64,000 nucleotides of DNA from Dictyostelium discoideum (taxonomy: Eukaryota). Under the pieces are notes generated by a model that ran no database searches, was not told the DNA's origin, and saw only the letters and a program-made list of their open reading frames with translations. A program made the position numbers and the translations under genes. The stretch spans positions 640,001-704,000 of the forward strand of contig CM000150.2 of NCBI GenBank assembly GCA_000004695.1. Direction: 5' to 3'. The number at the start of each line of letters is the position of its first letter. The first letter of the stretch is position 1. Below are positions 43,639 through 55,010 of the stretch, piece after piece.

Positions 43639-46600
43639 TTAATAATTTGTTTTTATGTTTGGTTTTTTTTTTTTTTTTTTAATTTTAAAATACATTACTC
43701 TTTTAATTAAATCTGAATAAAATAAATTTGAATGAGAGAAATAAGAAATGTAATCATTTAAATAATTGAAATTACCATTTGCTAAAACTTGATAGAATAA
43801 AACATCAATCCATTCAGAGTAAGCATTTAAATTGTAAGCATTTGCAATGATTAGAGATTCTTTAAAGAAAGGACGAATGGTCATTGAGTGTTTTGCTTGA
43901 TTTTGACGTAAATTAATGATTGGAATTTCTGGTGATTTTATTTGTAAAGCAATTAAAGCACCCATTGAAATACAAGTTTGAGCAGTACGTTGACTTCTTT
44001 CTTTTGAATAATTATCAGCTGCATCTAAGAAATCTTTCATAATTGATAATAGTTCCTGTTTACTTGAATTACTATTCAATGATGAATTTGATTTATTACC
44101 GCCAATACCACTACCGCCATAGTGATTGTCAACCATTTTACCTAATGATTCTAATCTTGATCTTGCTTTTTGTTCATTATTTAATGCAATTTCACGATAC
44201 ATATTAAAACGTAAGAATAACATTTCCAATTTGTCTTGATATAATGGTTGTTTCTTCATTAGATAAGAATGTAATGCTAACTTTAAACCATTTTGATCTT
44301 CATGTTGATGAATTTTCTTTCTTAATAATAATTCAAATTGATTATGTTGAAGTAGAATATCGAAAATTGATTGTAACTCGTTATAGCATTGCATACCTGT
44401 AATTAAACGTACCAACAATTTATATTTACCAGCATCTGCATAATAGTTTACTCTTGATTTAACCATATTCAATACTAAAATTGTACCATCAACACTACAT
44501 GCAATGACAAAACAAAAATGAGCTCTAACAAACATTTCAACTTCAGCTTCCATACCTATTGGTGATGATAATTTACCACTACCATTATTACCACCACCAT
44601 TGCCACCACCACCACCTGTACCATTTAAGGTATTGCTCTGTTGTTTTAATGATGGTGAAACATAACTACCCATACCAGTATTACCAAAAATTCCAGGTGA
44701 ATTATCAACAGAGAAATAAGATTCATAATTTATACGTGTTGCTTCAATTAATTTCATACCAAATGTAAATGGATCTCTTCCAATTCTAATATATTCATGA
44801 AATTCTTCTGATGTCCAATTTGGGTCGATACCATTTGATTTACCTTCACCAACTCTACCTGGTTGATCATCTAAAGATAATGATAAAATACTCATATTTG
44901 GTGAAGTTGAACCACTTGATGATGTACTTTGATGAGATTTATTATATTGATTGATTATGGTTTCAGAGAATAGATCTGCTAATTGATCATTAATTTTATC
45001 GATATCTAAATGATTTGTGAAAATATAAGATTTGATTAATCTAAAACAATCTTTACCAAGTAATAGCAATTGATTAATGATATCATATGGATTTGAAATT
45101 AATAATTCAGAATAACCCATTGATAATTTCTCTGAAACATTAAATTTATTAATGATTGCTTTTGCCGCTTGTTTTGCTAAAGTACAACATGATGATAAAT
45201 TCTCTAATGTTGATAAAATATTTTCAACTGAAATTTCAAATCCACTATTACCGCCATTACCATTACCACTAGCACCTGTAAAAGTTGAAGATGATTGGAA
45301 TTGTGATTGTTGTGATGCTTTTAACCATCTACTTGTATTATAATCACGACTTAATTCATTAATTAATTCTTGTGGGAATTGATTTGGATTTGGTGAAATG
45401 GTTCTATTTACAATCTTTAACATTGTTGAAATTAAATCATAATCAATTGATTTATAATTAAATTGTTGTACGATTTGTTCTGCTTCAAAAAGTTGATTTG
45501 AATTTAATAATTTTGATAAAACATTATCCAATGCCTTTGGTTCTAATTGAATTGATTTAATTGGTGAAATTACTGATGAAACACTTGTTGTTGTTGTTGT
45601 TGTTGTTGTTTTATTATCTTTAATTGATGAAACAAATGATGGTTGTTGTAATGGTGAAGTTGAGAAAGAAGAATTTGTACCACTACTTGAAATTAATTGG
45701 AATTTTCTATTTCTTTGAGCATAATCTTTAATTGGTGAATCATGATGGTCAATTGGTGATGAAGATAATGAAGATGAAGGTGAAGCCATTGGTGAAGTGA
45801 AATAAGATAATAAATTTTGACTACTATTTTTAATACTATCACTATTACTATTATTATTATTATTATTATTGACACTCTTGAATCCACCAGAACCACGATT
45901 AGTACCACGTGGAAAAGTAATACTACGAGCTGGTGAAGTTGAAGGTGAAAAATCTTCATATGAACCATCATCATCGAATGGTCTATCATTAGATTCTTGA
46001 TTTGAAAGTCCAACTGATAATAGTAAAATTTGTTTCTTTAAATCTTCAATAAATGTAGTTGTAATTGATGATGATTTAGTTGGTGTTAATTGTGTAGTAT
46101 TACCACTACCACTACCCACAATATTATCTGTATTTATATTTTCAAAATAAGATTTTTCAAACCATTCAACAGCAATTGATAATAAAAATACTTTTTCTCT
46201 TGAAGGTTGAATATTATTACCACGATTATAGAATAACTCACCTGCGATATCAGGTTTTGATTGATGTTGAATGAAATATTGTTGACATTTCTTCCAAAGA
46301 TTAATTCTTTCTTGTTCAATTTCCCATAGACAACCTTGTTGATAATGATTGATTAGCGCATCAACCTCTGCCACAGTGACCAAATCCTTATCTAAATGAT
46401 TCTCTAATGAATAAGTTCTAGCATCTTTAAATAAACCTTTTTCAATTAAATGTTGTACAATTAATTTTGGATCCATATGAATACTTTTATCTTGCATTTG
46501 AGTTCTCTTCAAAAGATTTAATGTACTATACAATGTTGAGAATGTATATGAAATACCTGATCTATGTAAAATACCAATAAAATGTTCACGTTCATATGAT

Positions 46601-52600: not shown

Positions 52601-55010
52601 AATACTTTATTATCATTATCTAAATCTTCAAGTGAAGGTATAATTAAACTATATAAACTATCATTTAATTGTTGTTGAACTTGTTGAAAATTATTATTAC
52701 TATTACTTTTAACTAAAATTGATGGTGATGATGATGATGATAATTGTTCATTATTATTATTCATTTCTTTATATAAATCATCTGCTATACTTTGTGATTT
52801 ACCTAAAACTTTATTATTATTGAAAACAAATGAATTCTCTCTTGACATTCTTCCAGAATTATTACCACTATTATTACCATTGGGATTATATAATGCATTT
52901 AAATTATTATTATTATTATAAACTGTAAAACCATTTAATGCATATGAATTTGAATTTTTCTTTGGGATCCATTGAGCTAATTGGCCAAATTCTTTTTTAT
53001 TATCTTGTAATTTCAATGAAGACTCTGTAGTTTCAAACCAATGAAATTGAAATATTTCATTTTTATTGGTTATATCCTCTGCATTTGAATATAACTCTTC
53101 ATCATCTGAATCCTCTGAATCAATAGGGTCAATTAATGTTGGTAGCTGTTGTTGTTGTTGTTGTTGTTCTTGTTGATCAGCACCACTAATTATTGGTGAA
53201 ATAAAAGAAGATGGTGAAAATATATCACATTCATCATCAATTTTATTAGTGTGACAATAATTGATTAAACCAATTGTTGAAAGTTGTTGAGTAATAGTAT
53301 TTTGAAAACAATAATCTAATGATAAAACATATAATTGATCATTTTGACATTTATAAACAATTGACATTAAATCGCTAGAAATTGAAATTTCATTAATTTC
53401 ACTAAATTTACTTGTAATTATCTTATCTTTATTTAAAAGTGATTTTAACTGAAATATTCCTCTCTTTTTACCATTTATATTCCAAATACTAGTTTCACCA
53501 TCTAATCTATTTACAATGAATAACCATTTATCAATATATTTAACTAAATGAATTGGTTTATCTTCTTCACTACTTTTATTATTATTATTATCATTATTGA
53601 TGATAGTAGTAATATTTTGATAATATTCTTTCTTTGAATTACCAATTGATAAATTAAATCTTCTTTGAATAAAAAATATAAAATTTAAACTATCAATTTG
53701 TTTAATCTTAAATAGAGCTATAACACTTTTCTCTACTAATAATACTAAATTACCTTGGTCATCACTTGATAAAATTTCAATACCTATAAAAAAAAAATAT
53801 ATATTTATATTAAAATTTACTATTTTTTTTTTTTTTTTTTTTGTTGTGTAAAAATTACTATTTTTAAATACTTACAACTTGTTGTATTTTGAGGTAAATC
53901 TAATTGTTCTAATATTTTTTGATATGGTAATATAAAATGATGTAATAAATAATTTTTAAATGTTTTAATTGTAATTTGATTTGGTTGTTGTTGTTGTTGT
54001 TGTTGTTGTTGTTGTTGTTGTTGTTGTTGTTGTTGTTGTTGTTGTTGTTGTTGTTGTTGTTGTGGTTGTTGTTGTGGTTGTTGAACGATTGGTGATATAA
54101 TACATAATGTTTTATTTAATTTGATATCAGATATTTTAATTGATGAAGAAGAATTTTGTAATGATTGTTGTGAATCTTGTGGATTAATCGTTGTAAGATT
54201 TTTAAAGATTGATAAAAGATGTAATGATGATTGATTATTATCTAATACAACTAAATTTGAAGGTATTGTAGTATTATCATTATTTGAATTATTGTATAAT
54301 GATATTGGCTCCTTTTGAACTTTTGGTGACATCCAACTATATTGAAATACCTCTGAAATACCTTCAATTTCAATCTTATAATCCTCGCTAGTTTGTTGTT
54401 GTTGGTAAAATCTTAAAATTTGAATATCTTTATCAATATATTCTTTATAGAAACTACTATTATGACTAAAGAAGTGATGATGATGACTACCAAAATGGTG
54501 TTGCTGCTGCTGCTGTTGTTGGTATTGGTGTTGTTGCTGTTGTTGATGATAATAGTAATATGGTTGTTTATATGTATAACTATTATTATTACTATTATTA
54601 TTGTTGTTGTTGTTGTTGTTGTTTAAAACGGAATTAAATAAAAATACAGATGATGATGAAGAGGATAAAGAAGATGATGGAGACGAATTTGTACTTGCAA
54701 TATTATTTTTATTATAATATAATGATGTAATAATTAATTTTTTATTATCAGATATGGAGAATGCTATATAATTTAAATCAATTGATAATTTGCAATCGAA
54801 ATTATTACTATCTCTATTATCTTTAAATATTTGATAATAATTACTGCCATCTTTATTAATATTGTTATTATCTTTATTATTATTATTATTACCATTATTT
54901 TGTGATTTATTTTGTAATTTATTTTGTGATTTAATTTGTCTATTTTTTTTATATATAGATGATTGATTATCTCTTTTAAATGTTCTTAAAAGAACAGATA
55001 AAGTCTCCAT
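43639..55010 (-). CDS. Giant protein of about 3,760 aa. It has a beta-propeller-like N-terminal region, long N/Q/S-rich low-complexity linkers and an alpha-helical C-terminal domain. Two exons: 55010..53876, 53783..43639.
   Basis: Exon A begins with ATG at 55010 (METLSVLLRTFKRDNQ...). The GTAAGT donor at 53875-70 is in phase 1. The acceptor ttttttttatAG is at 53784-85. Exon B (GT-IEILSSDDQGNLVLLVEKSVIALFKIKQIDSLNF...WLFIVNRLDGETSIWNINGKK...) continues stop-free into track ORF 43639..53367. The C-terminus reads ...KYKLLVRLITGMQCYNELQSIFDILLQHNQFELLL...SYLMKKQPLYQDKLEMLFLRFNMYREIAL.... A spatacsin/SPG11-like identity is only a hypothesis. Confidence 0.75.

Follow-up and report, generated by a model that had tools for sequence, protein, structure and literature searches.

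The 64-kb window analysed here, that is, the whole stretch of DNA of 64,000 nucleotides (nt), has a guanine plus cytosine (GC) content of ~22%, long poly-N/Q coding runs and short, very AT-rich introns with GTAAGT donors. Low GC content, poly-N/Q runs and short AT-rich introns are hallmarks of a Dictyostelium-type genome. On the minus strand, at 43499..55010, we place a gene of three exons with a coding sequence of 11,340 nt, whose product of 3,779 amino acids (aa) we read, with a probability of roughly 0.93 for the locus as a whole, as the dictyostelid orthologue of spatacsin (SPG11). Spatacsin is a large scaffold of late endosomes/lysosomes, where the AP-5 adaptor complex is its partner (Hirst 2013, PMC3744948; Hirst 2021, PMC7814351). 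The predicted parts of the gene and of its product are the following:

53876..55010, minus strand: exon 1, 1135 nt, 23.4% GC; residues 1-378 and the first base of codon 379; first propeller blades, broken up by poly-N/Q/S runs
53784..53875, minus strand: intron 1, 92 nt, GTAAGT...T10-ATAG, phase 1, 8.7% GC
43699..53783, minus strand: exon 2, 10,085 nt, no stop codon; residues 379-3740; remaining propeller, helical hairpin, long helical middle and Spatacsin_C
43619..43698, minus strand: intron 2, 80 nt, GTAATG...TTATTAG, phase 0, 11.3% GC, with an A18 run
43499..43618, minus strand: exon 3, 39 codons plus TAA (ending at 43499); residues 3741-3779
52153..54803, minus strand: WD40-type beta-propeller (residues ~70-865) and helical hairpin (residues ~868-922), containing intron 1
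44764..52152, minus strand: long middle region, residues ~923-3385, with collinear blocks to human spatacsin
43699..44763, minus strand: Spatacsin_C region (PF14649), residues 3386-3740

A preliminary description of the locus had proposed a trafficking scaffold of the spatacsin/SPG11 type with a conserved, helical C-terminus, and had named Spatacsin_C, BEACH and WD40 profiles as means of checking this. Both the scaffold family and the C-terminus were borne out by the Pfam Spatacsin_C match at residues 3386-3740 (E=3.6e-102; 341.9 bits vs a cut-off of 25; profile positions 2-294 of 296), together with nine blocks collinear with human spatacsin. When all PDB sequences were searched with phmmer, human spatacsin (8yad_B) was the only significant match free of low complexity, the C-terminal domain aligning with human residues 2112-2369 (E=3.8e-36, 116.8 bits). 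The nine phmmer blocks span human residues 480-2369, and their order is the same in the two proteins; several of them are weak when taken singly (2-15 bits), yet all are collinear:

Block 1: residues 852-922, human 480-550
Block 2: residues 1270-1330, human 723-783
Block 3: residues 1825-1857, human 983-1015
Block 4: residues 2069-2135, human 1141-1214
Block 5: residues 2422-2495, human 1340-1411
Block 6: residues 2550-2658, human 1439-1523
Block 7: residues 2813-2898, human 1669-1754
Block 8: residues 3232-3334, human 1971-2070
Block 9: residues 3456-3725, human 2112-2369

Because the blocks are collinear along the whole protein, we regard the product as a full-length orthologue rather than a protein that merely shares a domain with spatacsin. 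Scanning the whole protein in pieces gave no Pfam family beyond Spatacsin_C above cut-off, and one sub-threshold match, to Vir1p (18.6 bits vs a cut-off of 29.5). The Pfam WD40 repeat models were silent over the whole protein, and a BEACH-domain scaffold was dropped as a candidate for want of any BEACH match above the Pfam cut-off in the same scans. Nuclear-pore proteins of D. discoideum (9hcj: NDC1, Nup88 and one more) also came up in the PDB searches and were set aside as poly-Q/N artefacts.

Residues 1-1200, used as query in an exhaustive phmmer search, yielded full-length relatives from Tieghemostelium lacteum (DLAC_01274, 3,124 aa) and Cavenderia fasciculata (DFA_05713, 2,847 aa), both listed in UniRef as 'Spatacsin C-terminal domain-containing protein', as well as from Acytostelium subglobosum (XP_012759458.1, 2,582 aa). 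These dictyostelid relatives are collinear with the protein over nearly its full length, with high-scoring segment pairs (HSPs) at 28-69% identity; the protein described here is the longest, the differences lying mainly in low-complexity inserts. A closer relative is the environmental protein P0067 (3,388 aa; 54% identity over the C-terminal 650 aa), encoded by one uninterrupted open reading frame (ORF) of 3,388 codons on two contigs (L001 1-10321 and L002 1-10250; JGI samples 3300028164 and 3300028107) with 36% GC and ~50-100 nt flanking the ORF on each side. These contigs appear to be assembled mRNAs from a dictyostelid-like organism. In a word-indexed search, a C-terminal query of 657 aa returned 8000 candidates and no match, being swamped by low complexity, and three matches once its G/S/N linker was masked. 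The best identities in the searched collections were 44-69%, and an exact-sequence look-up of the 3,779-aa product and of a 3,759-aa version ending at the stop at 43639 found no entry in the searched collection.

A spatacsin homologue has been recorded from D. discoideum AX4 (XP_647252.1 / DDB_G0268328; E=3e-29 to human), together with SPG15 (DDB_G0276689) and AP-5 beta5 (DDB_G0282421) (Hirst 2011, PLoS Biol 9:e1001170, Table S1); a sigma5 homologue is mentioned in the legend to Figure S11 of that paper. DDB_G0268328, which came out of a homology search, is likewise a dictyostelid spatacsin homologue, and its genome has SPG15 and AP-5 as well; the gene described here is very probably that same gene, or else the corresponding orthologue from a sister strain or species. 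As both the family and a member from Dictyostelium were on record before, our finding, though correct, is an ordinary one. No paper came up in a full-text search for DDB_G0268328, and no functional study of spatacsin in Dictyostelium was found in the searchable literature.

The N-terminal part of the protein is predicted to form a WD40 beta-propeller followed by a helical hairpin, as in the rest of the family. The preliminary description had assigned a beta-propeller-like fold to the first ~600 aa; the beta-rich N-terminus stands, while the extent had to be revised, since the hairpin match and the structural model carry the propeller to ~865, its greater length being due to low-complexity inserts. 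The last strand and the hairpin are directly recognisable (residues 852-922 vs human 480-550, E=4.4e-8, phmmer vs PDB), so that the propeller would end near residue 865; this hairpin was all that a direct phmmer search of the N-terminus against PDB detected. A profile built from 12 N-terminal regions of diverse eukaryotes (A2) matched the WD40-hairpin chain of SPG11 (8yab_D 154-523, E=6.3e-21), and on this profile the join between exons 1 and 2 falls at about human residue 154. AlphaFold2 run on residues 1-989 as a single sequence was uninformative (predicted local distance difference test, pLDDT, 30.5). With the A2 alignment and no templates, strand-rich segments reached pLDDT 70-85 (predicted template modelling score 0.50), and the model has strands in groups of about four with disordered inserts between them, followed by the hairpin helices. 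Foldseek of this model against PDB returned almost exclusively beta-propellers, as partial matches.

Overall, the order of WD40 propeller, hairpin, putative alpha-solenoid and Spatacsin_C is that of human spatacsin (8yad_B, 8yah, 8yab_D; 2,443 aa), and the middle-region blocks match, at the level of sequence only, parts of the human alpha-solenoid resolved in 8yad. The propeller blades have diverged from the human ones beyond the reach of direct pairwise comparison, and the product is ~1,300 residues longer than human spatacsin, largely through inserts of low complexity in which N, Q, S and T abound. Asparagine accounts for 13.8% of residues; there are 21 homopolymer runs of at least six residues (239 aa in sum), including poly-N runs of 39 and 38, and the middle region is interrupted by poly-N stretches as long as 39 residues. 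Propeller-plus-solenoid coat scaffolds of other kinds are clathrin heavy chain, alpha- and beta'-COP, Sec31, IFT-A and the HOPS Vps subunits.

The exon structure requires a closer weighing. The start codon, the ATG at 55010, has an in-frame TAA 15 nt upstream and appears conserved, the N-terminus METLSVLLRTFKR aligning with METLPVLIRSFNP in P0067 and MESISIVLRSLRS in T. lacteum; the frame of exon 1 then stays open for 378 codons, with a chance of ~1e-16 at the local base composition. The ORF list was made under bacterial rules, which make spliced genes look broken, and as the preliminary description had noted it carries 53820-55010 and 43639-53367 as separate ORFs, both on the minus strand. 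Taken at face value, this list would mean two genes, one for a 396-aa low-complexity protein (53820..55010) and one for a 3,242-aa protein starting at the ATG at 53367. Such an arrangement is extremely unlikely, for the exon 2 frame continues without a stop 168 codons beyond that ATG in the upstream direction, as far as a TAA inside the GTAAGT donor, the relatives align unbroken from Met1 over the first junction, and a downstream start would cut a domain, this junction being located within the propeller (near human residue 154); exon 1 is thus needed for an intact propeller. The splice sites proposed earlier for joining the two ORFs fit the sequence: exon 1 ends in phase 1 at the GTAAGT donor (53875-53870), the acceptor AG (53785-53784) follows ten T and AT, and the join T|GT creates Cys379 and reads on as IEILSSDDQGNLVLLVEK into the large ORF, stop-free to 43639. 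Intron 1 has a GC content of 8.7%, whereas the exons have 23-25% and the flanks 9-15%. Sequence is conserved on both sides of Cys379 (LHHFILPYQKILEQLDLPQNTTSC|IEILSSDDQGNLVLLVEK here vs LHSFSIPFSELIERVSVMGENQLDGRVEILGADDRGNITLLIQ), and the 92-nt intron is favoured because P0067 and C. fasciculata align over the join with no gap. While several GT...AG pairs around this junction stay in frame, the sole serious alternative for the same gene is an acceptor at 53820 (AG 53821-53820), giving a 56-nt intron, 12 extra residues LNFNINIYFFFI and Gly in place of Cys379. The resulting join is likewise in frame and stop-free, but the added 36 nt are almost pure A/T and the inserted peptide lacks a counterpart in P0067 or C. 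fasciculata, both gap-free against the product of the 92-nt intron, which makes this acceptor a highly improbable choice for the gene model. As a separate observation, the alternative acceptor within intron 1 (window 53784-53821, minus strand), with its 12 additional residues, could represent a minor splice form.

At the 3' end, the preliminary description had stopped one exon short: it counted two exons and ~3,760 aa, whereas a second predicted intron raises this to three exons and 3,779 aa, since the relatives cross KR|YK. If there were no third exon, the protein would end at the stop at 43639 with 3,759 aa; the frame is truly open to the TAA at 43641-43639, and where exon 2 ends, the Pfam profile is already nearly complete (294 of its 296 positions). 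However, that product ends in SDLIKRVMYFKIKKKKKKPNIKTNY, its last 19 residues after LIKR (VMYFKIKKKKKKPNIKTNY, then stop) being a translated A/T homopolymer that takes over from genuine sequence exactly at GTAATG, and the 80 nt in question, at 11% GC, resemble intron 1. With the donor G at 43698 and the acceptor AG at 43620-43619, the stop at 43639 falls within the intron, and the exon 3 peptide, YKADTTKSGKLQHVRNIIQNVIVDKNLKNELEKELTNYK followed by a stop, is in frame with exon 2. The 310-aa environmental protein P0001, 70% identical over the last 320 columns in BLASTP, reads ELVKRYKTDPKGGKSQNMKTLLNIITDKSVRYELAREL through this second junction, its alignment passing as ...LIKR|YKADTTKSGK...; HSPs with T. 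lacteum, A. subglobosum, C. fasciculata and P0067 extend to residues 3771-3775 of 3779, and every relative continues KRYK(A/T)D and matches the exon 3 peptide. Because the relatives align straight across KR|YK, we take the stop at 43639 to be read-through of intron 2 and consider a two-exon gene very unlikely.

Certain points nevertheless weigh against the three-exon spatacsin reading or parts of it. Both predicted splice junctions draw their support from homology and splice-signal logic. A three-sequence profile limited to dictyostelids sees just the last strand and the hairpin (human SPG11 476-551), so homology at the level of blades is transitive via intermediate sequences. The AlphaFold2 model is of moderate confidence (mean pLDDT 52.8). 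Binding to AP-5 and SPG15 as well as lysosomal localisation would be extrapolated from human work, and the identity with DDB_G0268328 is an inference.

As to function, the human propeller and hairpin clamp the zeta and beta5 trunks of AP-5 (bioRxiv 10.1101/2024.06.14.598999; pull-down in Hirst 2013, PMC3744948). By analogy with the human complex, the propeller-hairpin module of the present protein might bind AP-5 through the same two trunks, and its solenoid might lie parallel to, and paired with, that of the SPG15 (FYVE) homologue, the two making up a curved scaffold. As a hexamer, the complex could be recruited to late endosomes/lysosomes positive for phosphatidylinositol 3-phosphate, where it may support retrieval, tubulation and lysosome reformation. 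SPG11, SPG15 and AP-5 have been reported to co-occur across eukaryotes, the propeller being lost where AP-5 is lost, as in insects (Hirst 2013, PMC3744948), and the intact propeller predicted here fits both reports. That a dictyostelid genome has a full-length spatacsin with its AP-5-binding propeller apparently intact adds little to this picture. A clean three-exon model should be useful for work on AP-5/SPG11/SPG15, the hereditary-spastic-paraplegia complex, in an amoeba that is haploid and genetically tractable. It is doubtful, yet conceivable, that the public Dictyostelium spatacsin model lacks the N-terminal exon or the last exon of 39 codons; if it lacks either, the three-exon model would be a correction that restores an intact AP-5-binding propeller. 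Similarly doubtful is a lineage-specific role of the inserts, some of which lie within propeller loops and which may instead be neutral repeats of the Dictyostelium type.

Neither SPG15 nor AP-5 subunits were found within the 64-kb window, nor were any tRNA genes. A second giant, uninterrupted ORF (5119-18171, plus strand) encodes at least 4,350 aa, with AAA-type P-loop matches at residues 1272-1303 and 1714-1861 and similarity to human and mouse RNF213 (mysterin) in phmmer (E=5.5e-44, residues 1424-2313 to RNF213 2501-3363); it appears to be a dictyostelid AAA protein of the dynein type that resembles RNF213, and a RING domain was not detected in it by Pfam. Just upstream on the same strand lie the ORFs 2835-4073 (with no informative PDB match) and 4199-4825, which might be additional exons of it.

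Closer to the spatacsin gene, a 293-aa ORF without a Pfam match (42072-42953, minus strand) lies downstream of it; sequence of a similar style continues past its stop, and it may therefore be just an exon belonging to a larger gene. On the other side, a divergent neighbour (55658-57436, plus strand) encodes 592 aa and carries a RING finger near its C-terminus (zf-RING_2, residues 529-572, E=1.3e-9), the two start codons being separated by 647 nt of intergenic DNA with 15% GC. Besides, a 300-aa ORF at 34079-34981 (plus strand) carries a CAP / cysteine-rich secretory protein domain (E=4.4e-14).

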